A stretch of DNA of 64,000 bases from Planctomycetota bacterium (GCA_020057085.1 JAGVGO010000238.1:1361-65360), one strand, 5' to 3'. Shown: positions 1 through 15,962, numbered from the stretch's first letter. Made by a program: numbers and translations. The notes: a model not told the origin generated them from the sequence alone.

Positions 1-548
1 CGTTGCAAATAAAACATTTTTGTGATGAACAACCCTGCTCTTTTTATCATCTCTTGGATCGTATGGTCGGTAAAAAATCTAAGATGAGTATGTTCTAAAA
101 GTCCAGAATCAACATATGCAAAACTACCACACAAAAGTGCAATTCTGACGCTTGCAAAAGCGACATTAGGTAGCGAAATAATTATTTGTGTTTTTTCCCC
201 AATTATTTCCCGTAAGGCCGTTAAAAATGAGAGGGGATCTGGCATATGCTCAAGAACATCGGCAAGCACAATAAAGTCGTAGTTATCCCTTTTGATGAAA
301 TCCAAAAACTCTTGCGCATAACCTGTATAAAAATTCCTATAATATTGTCTGGCTATGCTTGCAGCATATGCATTAGGTTCTATGCCATCAATAATAATTT
401 TTGGGTGTAATTGCTTTAATACAAGTGCAAGCAGCCCATTTCCGGCTCCTATATCTAAGATTGTCGAACAATCATTTACTATCTTACCAATCTGTCGTAG
501 TGGGTTTACCTCATCCTGCAAAACAAATTTGACCGACTCTGTATTCAT
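1..548 (-). CDS. Class I SAM-dependent methyltransferase, 3' end cut by the window edge
   Basis: Absent from the ORF track because it runs off the window. My own translation from the ATG at 548-546 reads MNTESVKFVLQDEVNPLRQIGKIVNDCSTILDIGAGNGLLALVLKQL...DFIVLADVLEHMPDP..., open to position 1. It carries the LDIGAGxG SAM-binding motif I and a VLEH-type motif. The start lies 13 nt after the stop of the upstream ABC ATPase gene. Confidence 0.75.
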   Translation of the reverse strand, partial: MNTESVKFVLQDEVNPLRQIGKIVNDCSTILDIGAGNGLLALVLKQLHPKIIIDGIEPNAYAASIARQYYRNFYTGYAQEFLDFIKRDNYDFIVLADVLEHMPDPLSFLTALREIIGEKTQIIISLPNVAFASVRIALLCGSFAYVDSGLLEHTHLRFFTDHTIQEMIKRAGLFITKMFYLQ

Positions 549-561
549 CTTATAGGTTTCT

Positions 562-1845
562 TCACTTCGGTTGAACATCATCTGCCTCAAACAAATAGGG
601 AATACTCAAAAAACCATGAGATTGATTGCGCGATCCTTCAAAAAAACCACGGCCAATTTCTATAAAAAAAGGGCTACAGTTGTCTACATATGTTAAGGTA
701 TTATTACAATAACTAACAGCAGCGCTTAAAGAATATTTTGCACTGATGACTGGCAGAGAATTAACTATGATTTTGACTCTCAAGGTGCGACTTGACGTTT
801 TGATGGGGCATCCGCACCAGGAAGAAACTACAGTGGTAATTCTTTCCCCCAATTCTGAGTCAATGCCAACCCCCACTACAAGTTCTTTATTGAGAAAGGA
901 ATCTTCAACCTCGGCGTCTAAATGAATATGAAATTTTTCGTCATTAAAAAAGCTATTTATTCTTTTCGATTTTTCATTAGTAATGTAAATATCTTTGAAT
1001 TTAACGCCGCCAGAACCAGCATGTTTTACCAATGCAATTTCTTCATTTTGTTGCGCAGTCAAATAACTGCTTACTACTGGGGAAGCTTTGCCATATTCCA
1101 AGAGGTATCCGGACTTGAGCAATATAGCATGCTCGCAGAGCTTTAATATTGCCCCCATATTGTGGCTTACAAACAGCACTGTCCTGCCTTCTTTGGCCGA
1201 AACATCTTCCATCTTGCCCAGGCACTTCTTTTGGAACTGCGCATCGCCCACGGCCAATACTTCGTCTACCACCAGTATTTCCGGCTCCAGGTGGGCGGCG
1301 ACGGCAAAGGCAAGGCGCACGTACATGCCAGAAGAATAGTGCTTGACAGGCGTATCCAGAAAGTTCTCGACTTCGGCAAAGGCGACGATCTCGTCGAATT
1401 TGCGTTTGATTTCTGCTCTGCTCATGCCCAAGATGGCGCCATTCAGAAAAATATTTTCGCGACCGGTGAGTTCCGGGTGGAAACCGGTACCGACTTCGAG
1501 CAGGCTGGCGACGCGGCCTTTGGTGTAAATTTTGCCTTTGGTCGGTTCGGTGATGCGGCTCAGGATTTTGAGTAGCGTAGATTTGCCGGCGCCGTTACGG
1601 CCAATGATGCCGACGCGGTCGCCTTGTTTGATTTCAAACGAAACGTCCTTGAGCGCCCAAAATTCCTCATGTGCCTGATCTGCTGGCAGCGGGCGGGCCA
1701 ATAAACGGGATAGCGCACGGTGTCCGGCAGTTTTTACCCACTCCGTGATAATATTGCGCAAAGCGGGATGTCGGTCTGTTTTTTTTTGGTGGCCGATGAT
1801 GTATTTTTTGCTGAGATTCTCTACGCGGATTACCGTGTCGCTCAT
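562..1845 (-). CDS. Polysaccharide/O-antigen-type ABC exporter ATP-binding protein (Wzt/TagH-like) with a C-terminal extension
   Basis: 427-aa ORF. Walker A GRNGAGKST, ABC signature YSSGMYVRLAFAVA, Walker B ILVVDEVLAVGD, H-loop VSHN. The N-terminal layout (VENLSKKY...EFWALKDVSFEI) is typical of glycan-exporter ATPases. About 160 aa lie beyond the NBD, as in Wzt proteins that carry a glycan-terminus-binding domain. Confidence 0.9.
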   Translation of the reverse strand: MSDTVIRVENLSKKYIIGHQKKTDRHPALRNIITEWVKTAGHRALSRLLARPLPADQAHEEFWALKDVSFEIKQGDRVGIIGRNGAGKSTLLKILSRITEPTKGKIYTKGRVASLLEVGTGFHPELTGRENIFLNGAILGMSRAEIKRKFDEIVAFAEVENFLDTPVKHYSSGMYVRLAFAVAAHLEPEILVVDEVLAVGDAQFQKKCLGKMEDVSAKEGRTVLFVSHNMGAILKLCEHAILLKSGYLLEYGKASPVVSSYLTAQQNEEIALVKHAGSGGVKFKDIYITNEKSKRINSFFNDEKFHIHLDAEVEDSFLNKELVVGVGIDSELGERITTVVSSWCGCPIKTSSRTLRVKIIVNSLPVISAKYSLSAAVSYCNNTLTYVDNCSPFFIEIGRGFFEGSRNQSHGFLSIPYLFEADDVQPK

Positions 1846-1906: not shown

Positions 1907-3292
1907 CTATATCCCTTTTCCGGTCAGGATTATCCAGGCGGTGCGGCAGATGATAAAGAGATCGAGCCAGCAGCTTTGGTGCCTGATGTAGTAGAGATCG
2001 TATTCCAGCCGTGTGGTGGCGCCTTCCAGGTCGTTGACATGGCGGAACTGGACTACCGCCCAGCCGGTCACCCCTGGCTTTGCCAGATGGCGCAAGTCGT
2101 GATTCGGAATGTCACGTGCAAATTGCCGGCACTGCTCGACGGTGAGCGGACGTACACCGACGATGGAGATATCTCCTTTGAATACGTTCCACAACTGCGG
2201 GAACTCATCGAGGTGAATTTTGCGCAAAATTTTGCCGACGCGGGTGACGCGTTTGTCGCCGTTTTCAGTCCACATTGGCCCTTGGTATTCCGCCTCGGTT
2301 ACCATAGTGCGCAATTTCCACAATTTAAAATGCCGTCCGTTTTGGCCGACGCGCAGTTGCGAGTAAAAGATCGGCCCACGTGAATCGAGTTTGATGGCCA
2401 GTGCCAAAAGCGGCAACAAGGGCAGAAAAAATGCCGCACCGATCAGCGTTAGGGCAAAATCCATGGCCCGTTTCGCTACCGTGTAGACGCTACCGGCGAT
2501 CTGGCCTTCAGCCGGCAAAAATGAAGAGTAGCAACCCTGTAAGTAACTGCTGGGGGTTCGTCCCAGAAAGCTTTCATACCATAGTGGCGCCAAAGTGAAG
2601 TTGATGCCTCTCGCTCTGCTCCGGATAAGCTGTTTTAACAGATGGTTTGATGGCAACTTGCAGTCGGCATAAATAATTTCATCCACGTCGTAGGCGGAAA
2701 TTTGTTTTAAATCTCTAAAATTGGCCGTGGCTATGGTCGCTACCACTTCATAGCAATGCGGATAGCAAGCCAGCAATTTTTCTAGCTCTTGCATGTATTT
2801 CGGCTTTCCCAGCAGCATGACGCGCTCTTGCATCGGCTTGCGGGGAAATATGATAAAGTAGGAAAAACGCCAGGCGAATACCAGCGAGCAAGTGATGACG
2901 CAAAACAACGACAGCGAAGCGCGCGGGTAATGATTAGGCGTGAAAAAATAGACAACAGTGATGACTATGCCGATCAATAACGTATTGTATAACGGCTGAA
3001 ACAAGGCGATTTTGCGATTGCGGAAGGTGGCCATGCCATAAGCATCGGTCACCATAGCAAACACCAGCCACAGCCCACACAGTGCCAACACTTCCCAGGC
3101 AAACTGATCCAGCCCGCTATAGATCTGCCAGACGATTAGCGTTGTCGCAGTCGCTATAATCAGGGCAACCATCTCTCCCAAGATCAGAAATATCTTGCGC
3201 CGAGAGAGATTTGGCCGCGGTTTTTTTAGACGAGGTCGCTCCACCTCAAGCTGCTGTGCGATCAACTCTCTTGCCAGTGCTTCTGTTTCCAT
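1907..3292 (-). CDS. Polyprenyl-phosphate glycosyl-1-phosphate transferase (bacterial sugar transferase family, WbaP/EpsB-like)
   Basis: 461-aa ORF with an ATG start. Several N-terminal hydrophobic segments are followed by the sugar transferase domain: KRAMDFALTLIGAAFFLPLLPLLALAIKLDSRGPIFYSQLRVGQNGRHFKLWKLRTM...DEFPQLWNVFKGDISIVGVRP. Confidence 0.9.
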   Translation of the reverse strand: METEALARELIAQQLEVERPRLKKPRPNLSRRKIFLILGEMVALIIATATTLIVWQIYSGLDQFAWEVLALCGLWLVFAMVTDAYGMATFRNRKIALFQPLYNTLLIGIVITVVYFFTPNHYPRASLSLFCVITCSLVFAWRFSYFIIFPRKPMQERVMLLGKPKYMQELEKLLACYPHCYEVVATIATANFRDLKQISAYDVDEIIYADCKLPSNHLLKQLIRSRARGINFTLAPLWYESFLGRTPSSYLQGCYSSFLPAEGQIAGSVYTVAKRAMDFALTLIGAAFFLPLLPLLALAIKLDSRGPIFYSQLRVGQNGRHFKLWKLRTMVTEAEYQGPMWTENGDKRVTRVGKILRKIHLDEFPQLWNVFKGDISIVGVRPLTVEQCRQFARDIPNHDLRHLAKPGVTGWAVVQFRHVNDLEGATTRLEYDLYYIRHQSCWLDLFIICRTAWIILTGKGI

Positions 3293-3303
3293 AATTGTAC
3301 CAA

Positions 3304-3351
3304 TATAAAATCCCTGTCAGCCTACTGGCCTAAGGCGAGTAGACTGGCAGG
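3304..3351 (-). terminator. Candidate intrinsic terminator closing the three-gene unit
   Basis: Read on the minus strand: CCCTGCCAG-T-CTACT, an 11-nt loop, AGTAG-G-CTGACAGGG, then ATTTTATATT. It begins 11 nt after the stop of 3363..5156. The outer stem has one C-A mismatch and the T-tract is short. Confidence 0.5.
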
Positions 3352-3362
3352 GAAGCAAAGTA

Positions 3363-5156
3363 TTAGCTCACTTTGAGCAGTTTGTCATAGAGTGGGAAGG
3401 CGGACGGATGTTCGCCGGCAATGAGCATTTCGATCTGGAAATCGTCCGGCGTCACTTCTGCCTTGCCTTCTGCCTTGATTTTGACCACTTTGAGATCGTC
3501 GGGCGCCTCGGTGCGGAATGTCACCTGCAACGGCACGGCCACTCTTACCTTGAGATTGACGTTCGCCCACAACTGGCTAATGCCACCCACCGTCTTCTGG
3601 TAGCCGAAATTGAGGCGTCTCACTCCGCGTTCGAAAGAGGCCGTGAATTCGCGCGGATGCTGCGCATCCCATTCTTTGTTATCCGGTTCGAGGGTGGTGT
3701 CAACGAGCGTGCCTTCCACCACCTTGCCGACGCGCCAGGTGAATTTCTGGCTCACTTCGGTGTCGAGGCCACCTTTTACGGTAAACATGCGGCCAAGACC
3801 TTTCTGATGGAACTGTACGATGTCGCACACACGCTCGATGCTAAGTTCGTCACTCGGCGCAGAAACACGTGCCTGCGGCACGCGGTTGCGATAGAGGAAC
3901 TCCTTGAACGCGTCGCGGAAATAAGGAATAGCGAACACTCTGCCGCCAAGGATGATGATGGTGTTCTCCGGGCTTTCGCTGAATCCCTTGAAAGTGAGCT
4001 CGCCCAATTTTTCCATGGCCTTGGTAAACTGCTCGCCCATCAGCTCCTCGAAGTGTTTTTTGCCATCAACTGATGACATTTTTTGCCAATCTTCCATCAC
4101 TTTGCGTGACAGGGTGCTGATGCGGTGCATCGGCGTGGCGCCATATCGTTTCTCCTCCTCCTCTTCGAGGAAGGCGCAACTGATGTGGTCGCCGCCAAAA
4201 CCAGTGCGGCCGAGGTAGTTGTGCGACAGCGTCACCGTCTCGCCGACGCGCTTGGCCGAGGCCAACTGGCTGAACGAGTTGACGCGCAGCTTGACGACGC
4301 GGGAGTGCGTGGCGCCGATGGTGACGACGAGGAAATTGATCGGATCGCTCGTGCGCGGCAAGATACCGTAGTGTACCATCAGTTTTTTGAGCTCCAGTTC
4401 CTGCACCGCCAGCTTCGCTTCCATCTGGTCGGTGAGCCAATGGAGGAATGTTACCACCGCTTCCGGCAGGAACACGAACCTCTCGCCCAGCTCCGGTGTT
4501 TCCTCTTCAGCAGGCAACAGCGGCGGGAAGAACTTATCCGCCGTTTCCACTAGCCACTGGCGGTACTGTTTGAGGTCGCCGGATGCGAAATAATCGGGAT
4601 ACTCGATGACGATTTGGCCTATCTGGAACCGCTTCACATCCGAGAAAAAAGTGCGCGCCTTGTGCCACAGGTGCTTGAACTGCGAACGCACGAACATCTG
4701 GTAGATGTCCTTGTTGGTGGGCGACTGATAAAGGCTCTTCTGGCCGTCGCACAGGGTGACGAACGAGGGCAGCTTGGTGCTGTTCAGCAAAAAACGACCC
4801 GGCTGCAGAAACAGTGTACACGGCGGGTCACTGCGGTCGCTCATGAAGTTGCTGAGTGCTTCGTCGCCGAGCGAGATTTCCTGTTCCTGATCGCTCAACA
4901 CTTTCTCGACACGCGCTGCCGCCAGTTCTACTTTCTGCTGCTGGTTCTCCGGCTTCCAGCGCATCACTTCGCTGCCTATCTGGCAGAGGAAGGTGCGCTT
5001 GGTAAACGTCGTACCGAGTGCCAGCCCGAGACAGAGCGACGGCAACTGGTAGCTACGTTTGGGTAACTTGATACCCGGCACGCTCATGGAAGATGGTCCC
5101 ATCGCCGGAACTACCCTGGATCTTGGATTCTTGTATACTTTGTCCCATACGCTCAT
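3363..5156 (-). CDS. Hsp70/actin-fold (ASKHA) ATPase-like protein with substituted catalytic residues; function unknown
   Basis: 597-aa ORF, ATG start preceded by GGAAAGG. Hsp70 NBD landmarks appear in the correct order: LGLALGTTFTK (phosphate-1-like), FLPEAVVTFLHWL (NEPTAAA-like), FLVVTIGATHSRVVKL (phosphate-2-like), IIILGGRVFAIPYFRDAFKEF (adenosine motif-like). The C-terminal region is beta-rich and unlike an Hsp70 substrate-binding domain. The alignment is by eye only. Confidence 0.6.
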   Translation of the reverse strand: MSVWDKVYKNPRSRVVPAMGPSSMSVPGIKLPKRSYQLPSLCLGLALGTTFTKRTFLCQIGSEVMRWKPENQQQKVELAAARVEKVLSDQEQEISLGDEALSNFMSDRSDPPCTLFLQPGRFLLNSTKLPSFVTLCDGQKSLYQSPTNKDIYQMFVRSQFKHLWHKARTFFSDVKRFQIGQIVIEYPDYFASGDLKQYRQWLVETADKFFPPLLPAEEETPELGERFVFLPEAVVTFLHWLTDQMEAKLAVQELELKKLMVHYGILPRTSDPINFLVVTIGATHSRVVKLRVNSFSQLASAKRVGETVTLSHNYLGRTGFGGDHISCAFLEEEEEKRYGATPMHRISTLSRKVMEDWQKMSSVDGKKHFEELMGEQFTKAMEKLGELTFKGFSESPENTIIILGGRVFAIPYFRDAFKEFLYRNRVPQARVSAPSDELSIERVCDIVQFHQKGLGRMFTVKGGLDTEVSQKFTWRVGKVVEGTLVDTTLEPDNKEWDAQHPREFTASFERGVRRLNFGYQKTVGGISQLWANVNLKVRVAVPLQVTFRTEAPDDLKVVKIKAEGKAEVTPDDFQIEMLIAGEHPSAFPLYDKLLKVS

Positions 5157-5196
5157 GATTAATCTGCCTTTCCAAATTTAATACACACACGGATCG

Positions 5197-7491
5197 CTAA
5201 CTCTTCTGGGCGGCTATGCTGGGCAACGGCGGAAGCTTGTCATACACCGTGCGCATTTTGTCATAACACTGGGTGACGATGATGGCCTCTTCTTCCGAGA
5301 TGTCGTCCCTGATATGGAAGGAAGAGGTGATGCGTGGTTTTTGCGCCCACAAATGCTTGCGCAGGCGATCCTGGTTCCACAGAGCGGCAGCCAGTTGGCA
5401 TTCCATGACACTCTGCACCGCTTCCTGGAAAGCTTTGCGTTCTTTGGTGGTGTAGAGTCCCTTCAGTTCCTGTTCCAGGACAGCTGCCGGTTCGAGCAGG
5501 TAGGCGATGACCGCTTCGACCGGGATGTTGCCTTTGATGATGGGCCGGCCCTTCTCTTCCATGAAGGCGACAATCTGGGCAACGACGCGTTCACGCACCT
5601 GTTTGAAGGTGTCTTCCTGGTAAGTGTCCCAGTCTTCCTGGTCTCTCTCGGCATACTGCAACACCTCACGCACCTGCTCCAGAGTCATGTATTTCTTGTC
5701 AACCAGAATCTGGCCGATGCGCACCCTGCGTCCGGTTTCTTTTTCGCCCTCGGCCTGGATGTGTAGAGCCTCCTCGATCTGTTTGGAGCTGGCAAATTTT
5801 TTCTGGATGCAGATTTCACCGAAACGTTCCGGCAAGCGGAACTCTTCGTTGCGCCAGCGCAGATCCTTGAGGTCTTCCATCAGCTTTTCCATGTAGGTGT
5901 CAATTTCTTTGTCGCTGGGACGGCCAGGCGTGATGCGTTTGACGCCGAGGATGGTGAGAAGATCCTTGGCGAACGGCAGAATCTGCGAGCCAAGACGGCT
6001 ATAGCGGATTTCGCTGCCCTGCTCACGCATAACTTTGGCCACTGTGCCCCAGGCAAATTTGATACCGCCGTCGGTGTTGCTGAGGCAGGCATCGAGGTTG
6101 GCATTGACATCGTACAGATAACGGTTGAGGGTCGGGCTGTTTTTGCTCGACTGAAGGAACGGCCGCGATTCCGACTGCGAGAAGTCGAACTTGGTGGCAC
6201 GGGTGAGGAACACATTGCGGAAGGTTTCACCAAGGCCGCGAATCTTGTCCATGACGTTGATTTGCACCCAGTTTTTCCATGATTGCTCCTCGTCAGGGAT
6301 AATCTCATTATTTGGCCCCTGCTTGAACTGTTTGTTCTTGATCGCCTGGTCGGTCGCCTTGTCAACCTTGTTGAGAAAGATAAAGAGACGGTTCTGCAAG
6401 TGGCCATGCTTGCGCGCTTCCTCGAACAGAGCCTGAAATTCGGTATCCACCTGCTGCTCTTCCAGCACCAGGATAAAGATGATGATATCCACCGAGGCCA
6501 CCAGACGCTCAAAGCCCCATCTGTTCTTGAAGGCCTGAATCTGCGAATGAACCATCTGGCGCGGCTTCAGGATATCTGCCTCGTCGCCACCGACACGCAC
6601 ACCGGCGGTATCGTAAACATCAATGTCTTTGAGAATGTCTTCGTCAACGAACAGTTGGGTAATGGCGCCGCAGGTGCGCATCATGAAGTAGGTCTTGGAC
6701 TCTTCCTTGGCCTCTTCGTCGCGGCACAAACGTTTATCTATGAGTGCCTTGGCAATGTGTTGCTCTCTTTCGCCTTTGTCCAGGAAGTTGATGAGTAGAC
6801 TGCGCGGCAGCGGGTTGTGACGCCCGAATTTGCCGCCTTCCGGATCGAAATATTTGGCGATTTCGTGCAGTGTCTCGAAATATTCGGCATCGTCGGCATT
6901 ACCTGTTACCTTGGCCCACGAGAAAATTTCGAGACTCCATTCGACCAACGCTGTGTGCAATTTTTTCTCGTGTGCAGCGTCCTTCTTCTGACTTGGGTCG
7001 CGTGCCACCTTGCCGAGGCGGTCCCATGCTTCGGCCATCTGTGTGTCACGCCGCACCACATTCTGCACTTTGGGCAGATCCGACACCAGTTTGTACAGAT
7101 CGCGCGGCATCAGGAAGGTGACGAGCCCGTGTTCCGCCGGGTTGATAGTGCGCGGATAGCGCAGACGCACTAACATCGGCGTAGTATCGGACGAAGTGGA
7201 AGCCGAAAATTCGCGTAGTCTTGTCAGGAAGCTATTGAGGAGTTCGGTCTTGCCTGCCGAGCTTGTGCCGAGCAGGATGGCGCACGGCGGGCGCTGCGCT
7301 CGTTCCACTACACTCAGTCCGTCGTTGCCGATAGAAGTAAGTTCGTCATCGAGGTCACGCAGTATCTTAAACCCCTTCTGGTCTATGTTGTCCTTGAATG
7401 TCTGTAATGGCCGTACCGCCTTGACGACCTCCCGCATCACTTCCGCCAAGTCGCCCAGTGTACGACAATGTTCTTGATAAGAAGATGGCAT
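5197..7491 (-). CDS. Dynamin-like large GTPase with C-terminal tandem MshEN/T2SSE_N-like helical motifs
   Basis: 764-aa ORF with an ATG start. G1 P-loop GTSSAGKT, G3 DTAGV, G4 NKVD. The large helical remainder fits bacterial dynamin-like proteins. Residues about 556-615 read RFGEICIQKKFASSKQIEEALHIQ...RIGQILVDKKYMTLEQVREVLQY. Confidence 0.75.
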   Translation of the reverse strand: MPSSYQEHCRTLGDLAEVMREVVKAVRPLQTFKDNIDQKGFKILRDLDDELTSIGNDGLSVVERAQRPPCAILLGTSSAGKTELLNSFLTRLREFSASTSSDTTPMLVRLRYPRTINPAEHGLVTFLMPRDLYKLVSDLPKVQNVVRRDTQMAEAWDRLGKVARDPSQKKDAAHEKKLHTALVEWSLEIFSWAKVTGNADDAEYFETLHEIAKYFDPEGGKFGRHNPLPRSLLINFLDKGEREQHIAKALIDKRLCRDEEAKEESKTYFMMRTCGAITQLFVDEDILKDIDVYDTAGVRVGGDEADILKPRQMVHSQIQAFKNRWGFERLVASVDIIIFILVLEEQQVDTEFQALFEEARKHGHLQNRLFIFLNKVDKATDQAIKNKQFKQGPNNEIIPDEEQSWKNWVQINVMDKIRGLGETFRNVFLTRATKFDFSQSESRPFLQSSKNSPTLNRYLYDVNANLDACLSNTDGGIKFAWGTVAKVMREQGSEIRYSRLGSQILPFAKDLLTILGVKRITPGRPSDKEIDTYMEKLMEDLKDLRWRNEEFRLPERFGEICIQKKFASSKQIEEALHIQAEGEKETGRRVRIGQILVDKKYMTLEQVREVLQYAERDQEDWDTYQEDTFKQVRERVVAQIVAFMEEKGRPIIKGNIPVEAVIAYLLEPAAVLEQELKGLYTTKERKAFQEAVQSVMECQLAAALWNQDRLRKHLWAQKPRITSSFHIRDDISEEEAIIVTQCYDKMRTVYDKLPPLPSIAAQKS

Positions 7492-7586
7492 ATTGACTCT
7501 GCCTTTCTAAAATTGACATGCTGTAACCCGGGCCGCCGGATCGAGCCTGCGGCCACGGGACAGTCCGTTAGATTGACAAGAAACGG

Positions 7587-10500
7587 CTAATATTTGTTGA
7601 TCACCGGTTCACTGTTGGGGAAATGTTTCTTTTCCATGATGTACTTCGGGAAACCAGGCAATTCCTGTAGCTGATCGCCCTTGACCGGCGTGATGCGCCA
7701 GATCACCGTAGTCTCACGACCGCGCGGCCATTCCAGCTTCGGATGCGTCCCCTTGAAATCCTTGGGTTGCTCGAAAATTTCCGGCACCAGGAAATTCAGG
7801 GTGTGGCTGTCTTGATAGCTGTAGCGGAACATCTGCTTCGGCTCACGCTCTTCCTTGTAATACTCGGTCAGTTCTTTTGACCAGATTAGCTTGGTTGCAC
7901 CAGGAATCTGGTCGGTCATCTCAAAGAACTTACTGAGCATCTCTACTGTGCGGTTGGGCGAAATCATACGAAAATCATAATCCTTGCACAGATCCTTGAG
8001 TGTGCGGTACGGTGAGAAAATATCGGGTAACACGGCATCTATATCTACATAGACAAATTCCAGGCGGTAGTCGCGGGAAAGTGCTTCCAGAGACCTCTGC
8101 CCCTCATCGGGCGCCGGTAACTGTTTCCAAGTGAGCAAGTGTGGTACGCGCTCAATGATGTAAGGCTTCGCTTCGATATGGTAGGCAAATGGCGACAAGA
8201 TCGGGCCATTGTCGAAGCTGAAAGTCCACCACCACCGCATCTTTTCTTTGGTAGTAGCGTTTTCTTTGCTGATGAGAATGGTAAATGTCTTGTCACGCAC
8301 CAGTTGCCGGATTCGGTCAGGCGAAATATGGTAGCCGCTCACTTCAAACAATAACACAGCGGCCGGGTGCGCCTCAAAGTCAATCATCGGCGGCCCACCT
8401 TCGCCCGGGCGGGTGATGTCTTTCTCGACGCCGCCTTCTTCGTAGAAGAGGCGCAGGCGCAAACGATTGGGTACCTTGGAAGCCTTAAGTTCGGCCGACG
8501 GATGCTGGACAAACCAATCCTGAAAGGCGGCGATGCCCTCTACGGTAACGAGATGGTAATTGGTTTCTTCCTTGGTGATGTTCACACTGTAAGCCTGGCT
8601 CGGATAGGCATCGAGGTCGAGGCCATTTCTACGGAAAAGGTACAGTTTCACCGGTTCGATGGGCGAGCCGTCTGCTGCCTCGCGATACGACTTGATGTAG
8701 ATCCACTTGCCGCCCCACGGACACCGTTCCAGCATCAGACGATCCACGACGAAAGTAAAGTTGGCGTACCATGTCTCGCGCGTTTTGGCGTCGGTGTATT
8801 GCGACATCATCGAACGCTCGACAAAGCGCAACAAGCCGGACGTTTCTTCTTTGCCAAGCCCCTCGCGGTTCTTGTCGTTTTCCATGCCGCGCACTTTGTC
8901 CTGGACCTCGCTGAAGTGTACCCGGCGTATATCGAGCGGAGTGACGAAGTAAGAACTGAGTTGCTTCTGGATCTCGGCCGCTATAGTGTTCACTTCAGGA
9001 TAATCTATCTTGCCTTCGACATCGCCTATTTGCGGGCTTACCGCCAGCATGGCAAGCCAGAATTTGCTGTCCGCCTTGTGGAAATCTTTGAGCCGTTTTT
9101 CCCACAACGAATCACGCAAGAGGTTCTGGTACAGCATGTCGGAAACCGACACATTGGCTTTTTCGACGACGTTGCTCTGTTTGGCAAAACTGGCCGGGAA
9201 CGGATATAGTTCTTTCAAAATCTCGGTGCTATCGGCAGCTTGCGCGAAATTTTTTGGCACACCATAGTAGTAAGACTCTGCCAGTTCGAAGATTTGCGCA
9301 GACTGCTTGTCGAGCAGCAACTTGTCATACGGAATAGCAAGCTGCACACTGACAAATCGCTCCGGTTCGCCGACGAGCGGCGGCAACGGATGGTTCGGCT
9401 CGGGCTGGACTTTCAGTTCAAAGGTCTTGCGGCTGGCCGACTCTTCTCTGTTGAGCAACCCGATCATGCTCCTGAGTTGCAACTGATCTTCGAGCAGTGA
9501 CTGGGTTTGCGGGCTCCAGGCCAGAAGCAACGCCTCGCGCATCATCTGGTAAGCCTCCTGTATCTTGGCCTCATTCTTGGTGCGGATGGCCTCGGTCACC
9601 ACGTCGCCCTGCTTGCCGAGAATGTTGACAGGAGGAGCGAGCGGCGGATAGCGGAAGCCGACTCCCTCAAGGCTCCAGCGAACGGTTTCCGCCCATCTTT
9701 GATCGTCAGCATGTACTACACCATCGCGATGGTACTTCTTGTGGAGCAGGGTCACGCTGGCGCAAGTGGCCAGGAATTCCAGTTTCTTCACCAGTTTGAG
9801 TGCCTGGGCTTTCGGATAATTTTCCACCTTGGCGGTGAACAGTTTCTTTTCGTCGTCCAGTTTTACCGTCCATTCCACCTGCTTCTCGGCAGCGCATGAA
9901 ATGTTCACTTTGAGCGTCGCTTCCATGCCTTTCGGCGGGTAGAAGAACTGGATTTCGGTGGCCTTGCCTGCATCGCCATACTTGACGCCCTGGCCGGGTA
10001 CTACCAGATATTTGAAAACCTTGCCGATAACGTCCTGTTCAGCACGGAAGTATTTCTCGCGGCCCGCTTCTTTGCACAAAGTGAGTTGTCCTGGGAACGT
10101 CTTGAGCAGTTTCAGCGTGTTATCGGCCTGTTCCAGGTTGGCAAACCAATCCTGATCGACGGTCTGATACAGACAGTTGGCTGTCTGCGGCTCTCTGATC
10201 GAGATGTAGACCTGATCCGACACGTCTTTGTCGGGCTGTTCGCCGGAGAATATGATCGCTTGGTAACGGAATTCACCGAGCGGTCCTTGCACATTTACGT
10301 TGTCGCGCCAATCTTCGCGGCCATACGCGGAGAGGCCTTTGCTCGCCGTATCCGATTTCCACTGGACGATGCGCAGCGCTTCCTTTGAACGTGCAGTGAG
10401 CGGCAGCACAGCCGCCACTTCACCGCTACGTGTCAAGGTAAACGAGGCATTTTCCACGTTCTTGTCGGTGAGTACCACCGCATACAACTGGTTGGCCGAC

Positions 10501-12755
10501 TTGGCGAAATCTTCGCGGATGCGGAACTGGCGGAAATCTTTCTTGTCAACTTCCTCGAACACCTTCACCTTGTTGGGTGCTTCCTGGTAGGCAGCAGCCT
10601 TCGGGGTGAAGTACATGGTGTTTTCCTTGAAATTGTAATCGCGGATGACGCGGGTTTCACCATTGGCTGTGTTGTAGAAATACAGCGTACGCGGGTCTTC
10701 CTGCAGTTGCAAGCCAAGGCCGAGAGCGCCGTAGCCGTCGGTCACCGGGTTGCTATCCTGGATATTGAAGGTGAATTGGCTGTACTCGTTCGGTTCTACC
10801 TTCTTGGGCGCTTCAGTCCAGAGCTGCTTGCGCAACTGGATCGGATAGGCAAGCCCTGTCACCTGATCACGGTCCGGGATTTTGGCCACGTCGAATTCCA
10901 CTTTCTCTTTGGGTACGAATATGAGCGCTACCGAGAGTGGCGAGGAAATGCCCGGTACGGCGATGTGCAGGCTGCCTTCCACCTTGTTGGTCGGCAGATT
11001 GCCGGAACGCACAGCCACCCGCACCACGGTGATCTTGGATGGCAGCTTGGGCAGACGATAAAAAGTCGTGCCGGCGAGTTCGAAACTATCCAATGGCTGC
11101 GCTTCCAGCTCATCTATGTCGGTCTTGGCCGGCTTCTTTTTGGGCTGTCGCGGTTTCGGCCTTGGGCGTTCCTCGCCTTCTCTGGCTTCATCTTCATCCT
11201 CTTCAAGGTTGATCGAGCGTACTTTCGGGTCTTTCGGCTTGCCTCGCGGATCGAACTCTTCGAAGGCAATAGTGGCTACCGGCTCCCCTTTGGGATCACG
11301 CAGGTAATGGATTTCCATAGGAATGGCCACACGGCTGACGAAATAGCTTTCCAGACTGACCCCGACCGCCGTTGTCTTGTCGTTCGGCGGATTGGCGAAC
11401 ACGCGAATTTCTTTGCCGATATAGCCACCACCGGGGATAGAACCGACTTCCGCCTGTTGGAAAGAAATTTCTGCAGGTTTATAGTTGATGTCCAGTGTCC
11501 AGTTCGGTTGCAATACCAATATTTCAATCTGCTGGCTTGCCACTTTAGCAGCCCCGGCATCCCTGGCGTTCACATCTTCCTTGGCCGGCACGATGGTGCA
11601 TCTTTCGCGACCACGTTTTTTGCCGGTGAGACGGAAGGTACGTTTGCCTTTTGCGTCGGCGATAAAGTTGGTTTCTACCAGCGTCTCAATCTTGGGTTCG
11701 CATTTGAATTCCTCTTCCTTGAGTGGCTCTTCGTAGTCCAGGTGGTACAGGCGATCCAATTGTGCCGAAATACCTAACGTCTTCTCTAAACGCAAAGGAG
11801 CACGATAGGTGCCGATCACCTGGATGTTATCCTGTACCTCTTCGTTCACATTGAGGACGATGCGGTTATTGACATATTCGCCTTTACCCATCGCCTCCAG
11901 ACGGATATTTTCCAGCACCGGCCGATTGAGGGGAGTAAGACCGGTGAGAAACATCAAGATCGAGAAAATGATGAAACCTATGCACGTGTACACTGCGGCA
12001 TAAGCTGTGCGGATGCACACCATTTCCAAAGTCGGAATATCACGGGAAAGATAGCGCAAGATTTGCAACATAGCGCCAAGATCATTGCTTTTGAGCAATT
12101 TGCGGAATTCCCGTTTATCCCATCGTTCCTGCACCAAATCTTTGATGGCGCGGATGGAAAGATCTTCGCTCTTTACCGTTTCATCTACCTCGGCAGGCAC
12201 GAGCGAATGCATGCCTATGGTAATGTGCCGCTCTCCGCTGTCGGAATCGCGAATGACAAAAGCTTCTTTGCCCGGATAGAGATGAAAATTGGCATACTGG
12301 AAAAGCTTTTCTTCTCGCAATGTCTTGACGGCGGCAACAATATCAAGAAGTTCTCTGGCAAATTTCTTAGTTTCATGGAATGGATTGGTTGGGTCTTTGC
12401 TCAGAGAAGAATCTACAGGGAAATATTGGCGATTCTGTGGCAACGAGATGCGCAAAGGTAACATCTGATTGCCGAGGTTGGTATAGGTGGAAGATGCGTT
12501 AAACACTCCCAACTCAGGAATGCGTTCCGCAATATTTTCCCAAATAGCTTTTTGCACTAAGACCCCTTCCTTTTCTTCGGGAGGAACTTCGTAGAAAAGG
12601 TCGCCCAATGCCTCGATTCCCTGATGGCAAATTTCGAATTTTCGAGGAATTTCCTCAAAGGCCTTAGCGTCTACCCGACATTTAAAGTTAGGGGGAAATG
12701 TAAAGCTGCCTTCTTTTAGCTGAATTCCCCTAGCTGTCTCTATTGTGGTAGGCAA
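7587..12755 (-). CDS. Orphan giant protein (1722 aa), single predicted transmembrane helix, no recognisable domain
   Basis: Uninterrupted 5.2-kb ORF. TTG start 7 nt downstream of AAGGAG. One hydrophobic segment at about residues 250-274 (TAYAAVYTCIGFIIFSILMFLTGL). A highly charged linker reads EEDEDEAREGEERPRPKPRQPKKKPAKTD. I saw no internal repeats and no signal peptide. Confidence 0.85.
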   Translation of the reverse strand: MPTTIETARGIQLKEGSFTFPPNFKCRVDAKAFEEIPRKFEICHQGIEALGDLFYEVPPEEKEGVLVQKAIWENIAERIPELGVFNASSTYTNLGNQMLPLRISLPQNRQYFPVDSSLSKDPTNPFHETKKFARELLDIVAAVKTLREEKLFQYANFHLYPGKEAFVIRDSDSGERHITIGMHSLVPAEVDETVKSEDLSIRAIKDLVQERWDKREFRKLLKSNDLGAMLQILRYLSRDIPTLEMVCIRTAYAAVYTCIGFIIFSILMFLTGLTPLNRPVLENIRLEAMGKGEYVNNRIVLNVNEEVQDNIQVIGTYRAPLRLEKTLGISAQLDRLYHLDYEEPLKEEEFKCEPKIETLVETNFIADAKGKRTFRLTGKKRGRERCTIVPAKEDVNARDAGAAKVASQQIEILVLQPNWTLDINYKPAEISFQQAEVGSIPGGGYIGKEIRVFANPPNDKTTAVGVSLESYFVSRVAIPMEIHYLRDPKGEPVATIAFEEFDPRGKPKDPKVRSINLEEDEDEAREGEERPRPKPRQPKKKPAKTDIDELEAQPLDSFELAGTTFYRLPKLPSKITVVRVAVRSGNLPTNKVEGSLHIAVPGISSPLSVALIFVPKEKVEFDVAKIPDRDQVTGLAYPIQLRKQLWTEAPKKVEPNEYSQFTFNIQDSNPVTDGYGALGLGLQLQEDPRTLYFYNTANGETRVIRDYNFKENTMYFTPKAAAYQEAPNKVKVFEEVDKKDFRQFRIREDFAKSANQLYAVVLTDKNVENASFTLTRSGEVAAVLPLTARSKEALRIVQWKSDTASKGLSAYGREDWRDNVNVQGPLGEFRYQAIIFSGEQPDKDVSDQVYISIREPQTANCLYQTVDQDWFANLEQADNTLKLLKTFPGQLTLCKEAGREKYFRAEQDVIGKVFKYLVVPGQGVKYGDAGKATEIQFFYPPKGMEATLKVNISCAAEKQVEWTVKLDDEKKLFTAKVENYPKAQALKLVKKLEFLATCASVTLLHKKYHRDGVVHADDQRWAETVRWSLEGVGFRYPPLAPPVNILGKQGDVVTEAIRTKNEAKIQEAYQMMREALLLAWSPQTQSLLEDQLQLRSMIGLLNREESASRKTFELKVQPEPNHPLPPLVGEPERFVSVQLAIPYDKLLLDKQSAQIFELAESYYYGVPKNFAQAADSTEILKELYPFPASFAKQSNVVEKANVSVSDMLYQNLLRDSLWEKRLKDFHKADSKFWLAMLAVSPQIGDVEGKIDYPEVNTIAAEIQKQLSSYFVTPLDIRRVHFSEVQDKVRGMENDKNREGLGKEETSGLLRFVERSMMSQYTDAKTRETWYANFTFVVDRLMLERCPWGGKWIYIKSYREAADGSPIEPVKLYLFRRNGLDLDAYPSQAYSVNITKEETNYHLVTVEGIAAFQDWFVQHPSAELKASKVPNRLRLRLFYEEGGVEKDITRPGEGGPPMIDFEAHPAAVLLFEVSGYHISPDRIRQLVRDKTFTILISKENATTKEKMRWWWTFSFDNGPILSPFAYHIEAKPYIIERVPHLLTWKQLPAPDEGQRSLEALSRDYRLEFVYVDIDAVLPDIFSPYRTLKDLCKDYDFRMISPNRTVEMLSKFFEMTDQIPGATKLIWSKELTEYYKEEREPKQMFRYSYQDSHTLNFLVPEIFEQPKDFKGTHPKLEWPRGRETTVIWRITPVKGDQLQELPGFPKYIMEKKHFPNSEPVINKY

Positions 12756-12955
12756 CTTTGTACTCCTTTTTCTTGTTTAGATCTTTTGCCGATACCTTTT
12801 TGTCAGCAATCGCTAACAAAAGCAACATTAACCGCAGCTAATGTAGGGTATGTCTACCAACGCACGTAGCAATCAGTTACGTGCTCCTGCTAACGTTTTA
12901 CTGAATTGCTGGATAAATTGCAATTACTTTTCTGATTTTGTTTATCGTTATAGCC

Positions 12956-12983
12956 ATTTTACTTGTTTTTTATAGCATGTCAA
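12956..12983 (-). promoter_or_regulatory. Sigma70-like promoter candidate for the giant/dynamin/Hsp70-like unit
   Basis: Minus strand reads TTGACA (12983-12978), a 16-nt spacer, then TAAAAT (12961-12956). It lies in an AT-rich intergenic region and implies a leader of about 190 nt before the TTG start at 12755. Confidence 0.5.
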
Positions 12984-13004
12984 AGCAAAAAATTTTACGT
13001 GTAG

Positions 13005-13085
13005 CACGGGCGTATCCAATAATTAGGGGGCATAGTAACTTTTTGGAATAACTACCCACCCCCCGAAGTGTTAGATACGCCCGTG
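13005..13085 (-). terminator. Long hairpin just downstream of 13095..13598 (terminator/insulator candidate)
   Basis: Perfect 12-bp inverted repeat CACGGGCGTATC (13005-13016) / GATACGCCCGTG (13074-13085), with inner pairings AGGGGG/CCCCCC and TAGT/ACTA. It starts 9 nt after the upstream gene's stop. On the minus strand a T-run (AAAATTTTTT) follows only after about 10 nt, so it is not a canonical intrinsic terminator. Confidence 0.4.
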
Positions 13086-13094
13086 TAGCACCAA

Positions 13095-13598
13095 TCAGTC
13101 ATGGTTGATGCCGGACATGTTTTGTTCACGTTCGCGCATCTGCGCCTTTTCGATGAAAGTCTTTTGACTGCCGACGGTGTTGTGCGCTTTAAACAACAAG
13201 ACAGAAGATTTGTAATTGGCAGTCACTTTGATTATTTTTTGCGACGTGGAGATACCTGCCTGCCCCAGCATGTCGCTTACTGTGCCGCTGCCATGCTGGA
13301 CACGCACGATCTCGACGCGGACGTCTTGCGGAGTAAGGCGAACGCCATTCTTACCGGCGCGCGCGATGACATCGTTGCGGATGGTATCTTCGTCTCCGTA
13401 GCGGTTGGCGTCTATAGCCGCGAAAAGCTGGTCTTGCATATAGGCGTACTGCAAGCTGTTTTGGAATATTTGCCATACGACTACGCCGGCCAGCAAAGCG
13501 ATGACAATGAGAGTATATTTCATAAAAATTCCCAAAAAATTTTTGCTTGTAACTGGTTTAGCGCGAAAGTCACTTTCGCGCAGCAAGACCTTCTCCAT
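13095..13598 (-). CDS. Small membrane-anchored hypothetical protein
   Basis: 167-aa ORF with a single N-terminal hydrophobic helix (YTLIVIALLAGVVVWQIF) followed by a soluble domain. An alternative start at Met26 (13523) is possible. No strong RBS precedes either start. Confidence 0.55.
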   Translation of the reverse strand: MEKVLLRESDFRAKPVTSKNFLGIFMKYTLIVIALLAGVVVWQIFQNSLQYAYMQDQLFAAIDANRYGDEDTIRNDVIARAGKNGVRLTPQDVRVEIVRVQHGSGTVSDMLGQAGISTSQKIIKVTANYKSSVLLFKAHNTVGSQKTFIEKAQMREREQNMSGINHD

Positions 13599-13724
13599 TT
13601 CACCAAACTATATACCATTTTACCAGAAAAATTTTGGTGCAATTTACCTGGATTATGCTAAAATGCAACCAAGAGCAAGAGATATTGCAAACACTAAGCC
13701 ATAAAAACGGTAACGGAGAAATGA

Positions 13725-15962
13725 ATGTCGGACCCTTTTGAGCCAAATAAAGCGCAGTCCAATGATGCGGGCAACAAACAGCGTGCCTTAGACCGCGAAA
13801 GAGCGCTAGAACGCATTTTCGTGTACCAGGCCGTGGAATTCGGCTATTTGACACAGGATCAATTGATCGAGTGTATAGCCGAACAGGAGGGATCGTCGCA
13901 AGCAATTGCCCTCCTTACGATTTGCAAACAAAAAAAATATCTGACCGAATCTCAAGTCAGACATCTCATGAGCAAAAGAGGTGTGTTCAAATTCTCCAGT
14001 CTGGAGCCGCGCGAGGAGAGACAACCTGTGGCGCCGCCGGTGTTCCGCGAAATACCAGAGCCTATTTTGCATCCCGCCGTTCCGTTGGAAGCAAAAGTGG
14101 AACGTCTGCTGGAAGAAAAAGACCGCCAATTGGAAAGAGAGCAAAAACAGCGCGAATTTTTGAAACGGCAGGTAGGAACTCTGGAGCAGAGAGTCCAGAA
14201 TAGCGAAAAGGAGAAGTTGGAATTTGTCACCAAATACCAAAGCGATATCGCGACGCTCAATGCCCAGTTGGAATATTATCGTAGTCTGAACGCCGAGCAA
14301 AAACTGAAAGATCTCGAAAAGAAACTGGAAGAAAAACAGCAGAAATGCCAGGTTTTGTTCAAATTGGTGGAGCAAAACAGAGAAGAACTCCAGGAGTCGG
14401 AAGAACAGAAGCTCAAAGCGGAAGGTGAATTGCAAAAGAACAGCAAAGAACTGGAGTTCTTACAGGAAAAACTGGACAAAGAAAACAAGGAGAAAATCCG
14501 CTTAAAGAAAGATTTACAGGAAAGCGAGGAAAATCTCGCCAGGCTTGGCAAAGACCTGGAATCGCTGCGTATTGAAAAAAAGAGGGTGACTGTGGCGATG
14601 GTCAAGCAGGACGCATCGGCCAAGTCCGCCGAAGGACCATGCGCAGGCAGAGAGTGTGATGATTACACTAAATTGGCACGAGAGCTCGAGGAGAAGGGCA
14701 TCCTGGAAAGCAGGCTCAGGCAACAAGAAGCCACGCTGTTGCAACAATTGGAAAAGGCCAACAAAGACCACGAACTGTTGCAAGAGCAGTTACGCCAGGA
14801 AAAAAACGGTCTCAGAGAGCAATGGGAGCAGGAAAAGGCGAAGATGGAAGAGGAGCTACACAAGCTCAAAGTATCTCTGGAAACCGATGTGACCCAGTAC
14901 CGGCAGAAAAACGAGCAACTGGAAGCAAAAGTTCAGCAATACCAGCATTCGCTGGGTTTCGATGATCAGGAAAAACAGAAAAAAGTTTTGCAACAACAAC
15001 TGGAGGAAGAGCAACAGAAGAGCAAGGCTGAAGAGGAAAAGAGAATACAATTGGCGCAACAGATGGAAAAAATCCAGCAGGAAATGGCCAATTTTCGCCA
15101 GTTGGTGATTGCCGGAGAACTAAAGGCCGGCACCTCGCTCTTGGGTAGCGGCGGCGAGTCTTATATCATCCAGAAAGTACTCGGACGCGGCGGCATGGGC
15201 ATCACCTATTCGGCGCTGCGCAACTCCGACCAGTTTACGGTGGTGGTGAAAACCCTGTTACCGGAAGCCCTGGGCGATATGAAAGTACTCATGCGTTTCG
15301 TGCAGGAGGCTCGCACCATCATGACTTTCGAGCATGAGAATCTGGTGCGAGGGCTGGACGTCTATCAGGGCCGCAATTTCAGTTACTTTGTCATGGAATT
15401 TCTCGATGGCGAGTCGGTGGAAAATATTCTGGAAGAGTAGGCGTTCGTGGACCCGGTACGCGGCACGGAAATCGTTCTTGGCATTGCGCGTGGGTTAGCT
15501 TATATGGAAGCACACCACCTGGTACACCGCGATGTCAAACCAGCCAATATCATTGTCCAGAAGAGCGGCGCGGCGAAGCTGGTAGATTTCGGTATCGTCA
15601 AAATGACCGACCGTACCTGCTCGCTTACCACTGAGGGTATCATCCTGGGCACACCGTATTATCTTTCGCCGGAGCAGACCTATCAGACCAGTGTAGACAT
15701 CAGAAGCGATATTTACAGCCTGGGCGCCACTTACTATCACATGGTGGTAGGCGAAGTACCGTTCCCCGGTGACAACCCGATTGATGTGATTCAGCAACGC
15801 CTGCACCACACGCCAAAACCGAACAAAACCAAGCCAGACCTGCCCAAAGAGATCAATAATGTCATCGAAAAGATGATGCATTGCAAAAAAGAAAAGCGAC
15901 AGACGACGGCCGCGGAGCTGGTCAAGGAACTGGAGTTTGTCTATAAGAGGATTCATCGCTAG
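13725..15962 (+). pseudogene. Coiled-coil Hanks-type Ser/Thr kinase interrupted by a single in-frame TAG (15438-15440)
   Basis: ORFs 13725..15440 and 15447..15962 are in the same frame and separated only by TAG-GCG-TTC. The first carries the G-loop LGRGGMG, VVVKTL and the alpha-C Glu. The second carries [11 protein letters not shown] and YYLSPEQ. Together they make one complete kinase domain split between the N- and C-lobes. The N-terminus has a GspE_N-like helical motif and about 350 aa of coiled coil. Confidence 0.7.

Follow-up and report, generated by a model that had tools for sequence, protein, structure and literature searches.

A conserved three-gene locus of Candidatus Uabimicrobiia with an orphan membrane giant, a predicted dynamin-like GTPase and a degenerate Hsp70-fold protein

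What could a very large membrane protein of no recognised family, a GTPase of predicted dynamin type and an Hsp70-like protein with altered phosphate loops be doing side by side in a planctomycetal genome? The question is raised by a stretch of 64,000 nucleotides (nt) from Planctomycetota bacterium (GCA_020057085.1, JAGVGO010000238.1:1361-65360; hereafter the window), which lies on contig C27 of a 3.7-Mb metagenome-assembled genome (MAG) with a completeness of 59%. At positions 3,304 to 12,983, a preliminary description made from the sequence without database searches had noted three genes on the minus strand (here the trio: the giant, the GTPase and the Hsp70-like protein) and had considered a machine for membrane remodelling or repair, for envelope assembly or for conflict. 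The reading that we favour, tentatively and with some doubt, is that the trio forms one conserved operon for an envelope-associated membrane-remodelling machine, serving a core trait of the class Candidatus (Ca.) Uabimicrobiia. Beyond the earlier observations, the present analysis adds this taxonomic context, a motif of cyclic di-GMP (c-di-GMP)-binding type in the GTPase and the probable export of most of the giant.

Gene order and phyletic range of the trio

The three open reading frames (ORFs) follow one another in the same direction on the minus strand, first the giant, then the GTPase and last the Hsp70-like protein (Table 1), with spacers of 95 nt and 40 nt between them, exactly as noted beforehand. 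Since full-length homologues with 40-88% identity exist for all three, chance ORFs are excluded. A gene-neighbourhood comparison, which had been proposed as a check, found the homologues to be co-linear throughout the window's own GTDB class: in nine of nine genomes the three genes are adjacent, in unchanged order and present at one locus per genome. The Hsp70-like gene was found in none of 392 other Planctomycetota sampled, and a pattern scan across 185,579 species, each represented by a single genome, gave eight loci, every one of them within the class of the window. Among these are the loci of Ca. Uabimicrobium amorphum SRT547 and of Ca. Uabimicrobium sp. HlEnr_7, and the NCBI taxonomy assigns the genus Candidatus Uabimicrobium to class Ca. 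Uabimicrobiia. In a set of 5.8 billion proteins, the homologues of each of the three form no more than about 16-24 clusters, none of them falling below 40-52% identity.

When all ORFs of the nine loci and their 10-kb flanks were clustered all against all, the trio alone was common to every locus and the flanks differed, in agreement with the earlier view of a self-contained unit. The trio had also been described as separate from the polysaccharide genes downstream of it in the window, and this view holds: such genes are not its neighbours elsewhere, so that membership of the trio in a polysaccharide cluster can be ruled out. In most genomes of the class, the intergenic gaps within the trio measure 0-25 nt. 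Across the class, identity amounts to 58-67% for the GTPase and 57-67% for the Hsp70-like protein; the best DnaK match reaches 68-82% in six of the eight other class genomes and 54-56% in the remaining two, where it may be a paralogue. Judged by these identities, the constraint on the trio is near the level of a housekeeping gene (DnaK).

The distribution and the conservation of the trio bear directly on one of the roles considered at the outset, that of an NTPase-centred conflict system (anti-phage or anti-invader) with the giant as sensor or effector. Its composition is odd enough for such a system, the class has expanded dynamin and kinase families (PMC11032199), and GTPase-centric conflict systems with HSP70 have been described by Kaur, Burroughs, Iyer and Aravind in 2020 (PMC7159879). 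In these systems, a TRAFAC-class GTPase is genomically coupled to an HSP70-family protein, as in the trio. However, they are patchy, with an enrichment in multicellular bacteria, and possess effector domains, often together with tubulin or GrpE (PMC7159879), whereas the trio is universal in one class and contains no recognisable effector. Defence systems are typically patchy and mobile, but the same three genes occupy one fixed locus in all nine genomes and are conserved at nearly the level of DnaK. Moreover, no PADLOC model matches any of the three proteins at E ≤ 1, no defence gene, mobile element or effector domain is recognisable in the flanks, and neither tubulin nor GrpE accompanies the trio. 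A conflict or defence role is thus disfavoured, and we consider it very improbable.

Predicted folds and topology of the three proteins

The middle protein had been called a dynamin-like GTPase on account of its motifs. G1 (GTSSAGKT, residues 75-82, nt 7246-7269), G2 (DTTP, 102-105), G3 (DTAG, 294-297) and G4 (NKVD, 374-377) are invariant or near-invariant among 19 homologues, with which an AlphaFold2 model of the protein was also built. In this model, a helical insertion of about 145 residues (approximately 129-274) lies between G2 and G3. The top matches of the model in a Foldseek search against the PDB are nearly all members of the dynamin superfamily, with E values of 5.8e-9 for SynDLP and 4.8e-6 for BDLP, and further include the Campylobacter dynamin-like protein (DLP) pair, mitofusins, LeoA, Drp1, MxA, EHD4 and IniA. 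Structural alignment by VIA-align gave a Z score of 17.3 to the mitofusin-1 minimal GTPase domain (over residues 1-759 of the GTPase, 353 aligned, root mean square deviation (rmsd) 6.4), followed by 15.7 to SynDLP and 15.0 to BDLP. Based on these matches, the protein can be described as a G domain with a bundle of N- and C-terminal helices. The model thus bears out the earlier name and indicates a dynamin fold of mitofusin/BDLP type for the middle protein.

At the level of sequence, the relationship is much fainter. No Pfam family reaches its threshold in the GTPase, Dynamin_N (PF00350) does not match it at E ≤ 1, and a PF00350 search of its own genome returns four other loci, the GTPase gene not being among them. 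Comparison with the canonical DLPs of the class by hhalign gave a probability of 91.6%, with the similarity confined to G1-G2, and a profile search against the sequences of the PDB yielded weak P-loop matches only (myosin, TnsC). Hydropathy analysis detected neither a paddle nor a transmembrane segment; the sole peak (1.88, residues 325-343) falls on a beta-strand in the core of the G domain, and the protein may have an amphipathic surface. Compared with bacterial DLPs and mitofusins (BDLP 2j68, SynDLP 7zw6, Campylobacter DLP1/2 5owv, MFN1 5yew, IniA, LeoA), the GTPase shares the G domain, the helical bundle and intact G1-G4 motifs. Unlike them, it lacks a Dynamin_N match and a detectable paddle or transmembrane segment, carries the G2-G3 insertion as well as a c-di-GMP-type motif, and is partnered by an Hsp70-fold protein instead of a second DLP.

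The c-di-GMP-type motif lies in the C-terminal helical region, where the MshE-related NCBIfam model NF053729 matches all 19 members of the GTPase family (best E 1.3e-9). The segment comprises four helices in the GTPase model, and it also has matches in numerous other proteins encoded by the class genomes, some of which are about 600 amino acids (aa) long. Its first 24-residue motif fits the R-x-G...L...Q pattern of MshEN, the N-terminus of MshE/GspE-type ATPases; the host of MshEN is a secretion ATPase, and here it would be a dynamin-like GTPase. Because the match is family-wide and GGDEF cyclases are present in the class, control of the GTPase by c-di-GMP is plausible.

The third protein had been read as an Hsp70 fold in which the phosphate-binding Asp residues are replaced. 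The top 50 Foldseek matches of its AlphaFold2 model are all Hsp70s (DnaK, E 3e-10). The nucleotide-binding domain (NBD) aligned with a Z score of 17.4 to Ssz1 (273 residues, rmsd 3.7) and of about 17 to the Hsc70 NBD; NBD alignments as a whole covered 273-287 residues with an rmsd of 3.6-3.8, and residues 40-452 of the Hsp70-like protein correspond to Hsc70 4-381. In the phosphate-1 loop, GLALGTTFTK stands against GIDLGTTNTK in the organism's own DnaK, so that Hsc70 Asp10 corresponds to Ala46. In the phosphate-2 loop, T279-I-G-A-T-H replaces D-L-G-G-G-T, and Hsc70 Asp199 corresponds to Thr279. The earlier reading is therefore supported in both respects, by fold comparison and by alignment, although one divergent homologue (P0064) has kept the Asp at the first of these sites. 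The GG of the adenosine loop is retained (residues 404-405). This combination suggests that the protein may bind nucleotide, while efficient hydrolysis is unlikely. Ssz1, the closest match named above, is atypical among Hsp70s in that it hydrolyses little or no ATP.

C-terminal to the NBD, the model shows a beta-rich domain. The 5obu row of the VIA-align comparison covers residues 39-593, and the Foldseek alignments to full-length DnaK and BiP extend over about 515 columns; this domain is probably the counterpart of the Hsp70 substrate-binding beta-domain. No helical lid is present in the model. The Hsp70-like protein has in common with the Hsp70 family, which has non-hydrolysing members in Ssz1 and Hsp110, the NBD fold, the GTT of the phosphate-1 loop and the adenosine GG. 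It differs from Hsp70s in that both Asp residues are replaced, no lid is seen in the model, no J-domain or GrpE gene lies nearby and PF00012 does not match. Indeed, no Pfam or NCBIfam model matches the protein at all, a PF00012 search of its own genome passes over the gene, hhalign found nothing between its family and the organism's own DnaK (probability 0.4%), and a profile search against PDB sequences gave nothing meaningful.

The giant had been presented as an orphan, and larger searches lead to the same result. The public gene call (1656 aa) starts 66 codons late, leaving out the segment 12558-12755 (minus strand). We take the TTG at 12755 as the true start because residues 10-66 are conserved across 16 orthologues, with invariant residues beginning at Q12, and because an AGGAG precedes it. 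No Pfam, NCBIfam or PADLOC model matches the giant, nor does any Pfam model match one of the 16 orthologues; profile searches with its two halves against PDB sequences found nothing, and an ESM-Atlas feature search gave no usable match. A HMMER profile of residues 560-1722, searched against 1.84 billion representative proteins, retrieved 19 proteins, all with E ≤ 1e-18, which were orthologues, fragments and a few short paralogues, and nothing more distant. By these sequence searches, the giant is a true orphan without relatives outside the class. No internal repeats were detected by hhalign.

The giant has no signal peptide at its N-terminus. Its single transmembrane segment contains an uncharged stretch of 25-34 aa among the 16 orthologues, and in all of these the N-terminal flank is net basic and the C-terminal flank strongly acidic. 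In Ca. Uabimicrobium sp. HlEnr_7 (CP165719; L071 6001-7557, L072 6001-7134), short paralogues of its C-terminal modules stand alone and start with classical signal peptides; P0073 is a further paralogue of this kind, and in P0075 an FGE-sulfatase domain is joined to the giant's last module behind a signal anchor. Taken together, the missing N-terminal signal peptide, the charge bias of the flanks with the short uncharged stretch and the secreted paralogues argue for an N-in/C-out orientation. The giant is thus predicted to be a type II membrane protein with cytoplasmic residues 1-245, and about 1,445 aa of it are probably outside the cytoplasmic membrane. A re-entrant hairpin was ruled out as an alternative topology, as only 25 uncharged residues are available in several orthologues.

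Such a topology would also suit an envelope or surface-layer assembly module, in which the giant is a structural coat, a periplasmic part or a crawling adhesin and the two cytoplasmic NTPase-fold proteins serve only its insertion, folding or turnover and remodel no membrane. The probable export of most of the giant and its secreted stand-alone paralogues speak in favour of this explanation, as do the polysaccharide genes adjoining the operon in the window and the fact that Hsp70-fold proteins are classically chaperones. On the other hand, these polysaccharide neighbours are peculiar to the window's locus, no GTPase of mitofusin/BDLP type whose catalytic motifs are invariant is known to act in export or folding, and the Hsp70-like protein lacks the catalytic aspartates that the chaperone cycle needs. 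We regard an assembly module as rather unlikely, if still worth keeping in mind.

Limits and surroundings of the transcription unit

The preliminary description had placed the trio between a promoter with a leader of about 190 nt and a hairpin with a T-tract. All of these elements are present (Table 1). TTGACA-16-TAAAAT matches at 11 of 12 positions and is the top promoter-like site within 3100-13800, and the AGGAG of the leader stands 7 nt 5' of the TTG start of the giant. An Rfam scan of 3000-13700 gave snoRNA matches at chance level only, with no riboswitch and no family for the leader. What does not extend to other genomes is the sequence of promoter and leader, which differs even in the nearest relative (locus L073, giant 88% identical). 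About 215 nt of the window's promoter, leader and spacer region are missing there, and a different site, TTGCAA-17-TATAAT, stands in the relative about 80 nt 5' of the giant's start. Since each genome has a promoter-like site of its own, a transcription start at the giant is plausible in both, although this particular leader is not conserved.

The stretch between the promoter and the upstream gene for 167 aa contains a 26-nt inverted repeat and, after it, a T6 run; this is probably the terminator of that gene and would insulate the cassette. Within the unit, the GC-rich hairpin in the spacer between the giant and the GTPase has no U-tract, and the corresponding spacer is only about 10-20 nt long in most relatives. 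At the other end, the hairpin at 3311-3353 (minus strand) after the last stop codon folds better than expected (0 of 200 shuffles fold equally well) and is directly followed by AUUUUAUAUU. The next gene 3' of the unit encodes a Bac_transf sugar transferase (Pfam, E 3.8e-60) with its ATG at 3292; because this start lies only about 10 nt further on, some read-through past the hairpin is possible.

Table 1. Coordinates of the trio and of its features in the window (AF2, AlphaFold2; pLDDT, predicted local distance difference test; pTM, predicted template modelling score; dG, folding free energy; z, z-score)
Feature	Position	Strand	Basis or remark
Giant orphan membrane protein, 1722 aa, TTG start	7587..12755	-	16 homologue clusters in 5.8 billion proteins
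Giant, residues 1-245, most conserved part	12021..12755	-	mean identity 0.55-0.76 vs ~0.3-0.7 (mostly 0.4-0.6) elsewhere
Giant, residues 246-277, predicted single transmembrane segment (signal anchor)	11925..12020	-	hydropathy peak 2.23
Giant, residues 278-1722, probable extracytoplasmic region	7590..11924	-	signal peptides on paralogues of C-terminal modules
Giant, charged linker, residues ~518-560	11076..11204	-	within the probable extracytoplasmic region
Dynamin-like (mitofusin/BDLP-type) GTPase, 764 aa	5197..7491	-	AF2 model, pLDDT 83, pTM 0.71
GTPase, G domain, residues ~60-475	6067..7314	-	invariant motif columns; secondary structure of model
GTPase, MshE-related c-di-GMP-binding-type motif, residues 556-612, C-terminal helical region	5656..5826	-	NF053729
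Degenerate Hsp70-fold protein, 597 aa	3363..5156	-	AF2 model, Foldseek, VIA-align
Hsp70-like protein, actin/Hsp70-type nucleotide-binding domain, residues ~39-455	3792..5042	-	VIA-align, alignment
Hsp70-like protein, C-terminal beta-rich domain, residues ~470-580	3417..3749	-	DSSP strands; Foldseek to DnaK/BiP; low confidence
26-nt inverted repeat, then T6	13005..13085	-	arms 13005-13030 and 13060-13085, 85% complementary
Sigma-70-type promoter-like site TTGACA-16-TAAAAT	12956..12983	-	11/12 match
5' leader, ~190 nt, with AGGAG at 12763-12767	12756..12949	-	fold z -2.5
GC-rich hairpin in giant/GTPase spacer	7521..7563	-	121-nt stretch, dG -36.4 kcal/mol, z -2.2
Intrinsic-terminator-like hairpin and AUUUUAUAUU	3301..3353	-	dG -29 kcal/mol, z -4.8

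Several further genes surround the trio. In the window, a Ser/Thr protein kinase, divergent from the operon, is split over two ORFs at 13725-15440 and 15447-15962 (both plus strand), the first ending in the N-lobe of the kinase domain and the second containing the C-lobe; the split may stem from a faulty assembly, a stop codon or a frameshift. A 796-aa ORF without a Pfam match follows at 15977-18367 (plus strand), and then a polysaccharide deacetylase and a PMT-family glycosyltransferase. Genes for a Wzt-type ABC transporter and a methyltransferase occupy window positions 3-1845. Elsewhere in the class, a hybrid kinase with FHA, GAF, HisKA, HATPase and receiver domains lies divergently upstream of the giant, solely in three loci of the Uabimicrobium family (L001 6765-9371, L002 6984-9602). 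Directly upstream of the giant, one genome of the window's family has a canonical Dynamin_N gene (G159:C48:15258-15749, corresponding to L003 ~8960-9451 on the minus strand; 742-aa ORF) in divergent orientation.

Known systems and a possible role in membrane remodelling

According to the preliminary description, no characterised system has this architecture. This view has to be qualified: the nearest predicted shapes turned out to be SrfC and SrfB, two products of the srfABC operon. In the ESM Atlas, the best shape for the GTPase is a SrfC cluster (PF10139), with a template modelling (TM) score of 0.55 by query over 519 residues covering 5-748, and the highest TM score by query for the Hsp70-like protein, 0.49 over 370 residues, belongs to a SrfB cluster (PF07520). 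SrfABC and the trio are both three-gene operons. The srfABC genes are widespread in Proteobacteria, Salmonella and Xenorhabdus among them, and SrfABC of Xenorhabdus has been reported as a cytotoxic factor; by co-immunoprecipitation, SrfA, SrfB and SrfC form a heteromeric complex that is reported to be cytotoxic by a poorly understood mechanism (PMC6950479). The trio might accordingly be a divergent SrfABC-type factor, secreted or contact-dependent and directed against prey or competitors, rather than an endogenous remodelling machine. Besides the two shapes and the parallel of a complex-forming, reportedly cytotoxic operon of three genes, the predatory habit of the lineage would suit such a factor.

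Most other comparisons set the two systems apart. The Pfam models of SrfC (PF10139) and SrfB (PF07520) match none of the proteins of the trio; PF10139 has no match over the cut-off in 301 Planctomycetota and, in the nine class genomes among them, not even a match below it, and the weak PF07520 matches within the class fall on other proteins of about 830-1440 aa. In size, the GTPase has 764 aa vs about 890 for its counterpart, and the Hsp70-like protein 597 aa vs about 1000. The A-B-C order of SrfABC contrasts with the order of giant, C-like and B-like genes in the trio, in which two genes are inverted. The first proteins also differ, SrfA being a protein of 51 kDa and the giant a membrane-anchored orphan of 1722 aa, as far as size, anchor and order are compared. 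In addition, the trio differs by the MshE-type motif of its GTPase and by a spread confined to one planctomycetal class, and neither the GTPase nor the Hsp70-like protein bears a secretion signal. Membership of the trio in the SrfABC system is thus not supported, and we found no literature linking SrfC to dynamin or SrfB to Hsp70. As the mode of action of SrfABC is itself unknown, a factor of this type would explain little, and we think it improbable.

A second comparison comes from within the class. Canonical Dynamin_N proteins are strongly expanded there (G047-G176), each of the eight other genomes having 6-21 matches, many of which stand in tandem arrays; four matches were found in the window's own 59% complete MAG, and about two weak ones in other Planctomycetota sampled. 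At several sites (L062, that is G159:C60:2-6493; G121:C201; G098:C154), a weak Dynamin_N gene of about 700-1000 aa is followed on the same strand by a SrfB-like or weak HSP70 gene of about 830-1440 aa, in the same order as in the operon. When the GTPase and Hsp70-like families of the trio were compared by hhalign with a paralogous DLP/SrfB-like pair of this kind, nothing beyond the P-loop was detected. Given these other pairs and the expansion of Dynamin_N, the pairing of a dynamin-like with an Hsp70-like protein appears to be recurrent, and the trio looks like its most derived and most constrained version.

The biology of the class, which holds the so-called 'bacteria of prey', provides a setting for the favoured reading of a membrane-remodelling operon. 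Members of Uabimicrobium engulf prey into fully sealed compartments and crawl on surfaces, and in division the cells pull apart until a thin thread breaks, with most canonical division genes being absent (PMC11481906; bioRxiv 10.64898/2026.10.26.761892). No eukaryotic phagocytosis protein is conserved in these bacteria, a proposed actin homologue occurs in only three of nine engulfing strains, and of the 245 orthogroups exclusive to them it was stated that 'no individual protein stands out' (bioRxiv 10.64898/2026.10.26.761892). In the literature on Uabimicrobium, including the last-named study, no mention of dynamin or Hsp70 was found. Engulfment, crawling and thread-breaking division all need membrane scission or traction. 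The candidate traits are crawling on surfaces, the sealing of compartments that contain prey, and the rupture of the thread when cells divide by traction.

In a remodelling machine of this kind, the cytoplasmic N-terminal domain of the giant would recruit the GTPase to the membrane, a step that is proposed because no paddle or transmembrane segment was detected in the GTPase. Self-assembly of the GTPase, driven by GTP, would then bend, tether or sever the membrane at sites marked by the outer part of the giant. The Hsp70-like protein, binding nucleotide and hydrolysing it poorly, could act as a clamp or as an assembly or disassembly factor of the complex, and the MshE-type motif would place the GTPase under c-di-GMP control.

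Several observations weigh against this proposal. The link to engulfment, division or motility is drawn from phyletic co-occurrence alone, and the window's own family consists of uncultured MAGs. In Ca. U. amorphum (AP019860), a frameshift of 1 nt within an A5 run (L001 ~17058-17070), located inside the c-di-GMP-type motif, divides the GTPase gene into parts of 588 and 159 aa. If this frameshift is real, an intact GTPase is dispensable in an engulfing strain; since the gene is intact in a close relative (P0037), it is possibly a sequencing error. The motif itself scores below the curated cut-off of NF053729 in the window's GTPase (E 3.4e-7, 29.9 bits, cut-off 38), and its second half and spacer depart from canonical MshEN: the spacer measures about 11 residues, the canonical one having 5, and the closing Gln of the second motif is shifted by two positions and variable among homologues. 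The model of the Hsp70-like protein is only moderately confident, with a pLDDT of 59 (core 70-89), and its NBD taken alone shows the superfamily only, as MreB scores within 1 Z unit of Hsp70. Finally, the fold of the giant is unrecognised, and the promoter and leader, as described above, vary between close relatives.

A bolder version of the proposal would make the trio the core, or part of the core, of an engulfment and scission apparatus. In that case, the exported region of the giant would contact prey or substratum, its cytoplasmic domain would nucleate the apparently paddle-less GTPase, the GTPase would close and cut the membrane neck of the compartment around the prey, or the division thread, under the control of c-di-GMP, and the pseudo-Hsp70 would assemble or recycle the components. 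In eukaryotic clathrin-mediated endocytosis, dynamin and Hsc70/auxilin act at the same event of membrane internalisation. The comparison with the trio is one of analogy: there is no evidence either of homology or of a coat, and the Hsp70-like protein of the trio is probably catalytically impaired. We rate this version as unlikely. If it were true, the trio would be a counterpart, evolved independently in bacteria, to the way in which a receptor, dynamin and Hsc70 work together in eukaryotic endocytosis.

The phagocytosis-like engulfment seen in Ca. Uabimicrobium calls into question whether the uptake of whole cells needs eukaryotic machinery, and the trio offers a concrete and testable candidate from the kind of lineage-exclusive set reported for these bacteria (bioRxiv 10.64898/2026.10.26.761892). 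Judging from models and sequence motifs, it would combine a membrane-remodelling GTPase fold, a membrane-spanning giant and a second-messenger input. The structural comparisons may also link the widespread and unexplained SrfB and SrfC families to Hsp70 and dynamin folds. Compared with a SrfC/SrfB-type pairing, what is new in the trio is the orphan membrane partner, the regulatory insertion and the tie to the only bacteria known to engulf cells.

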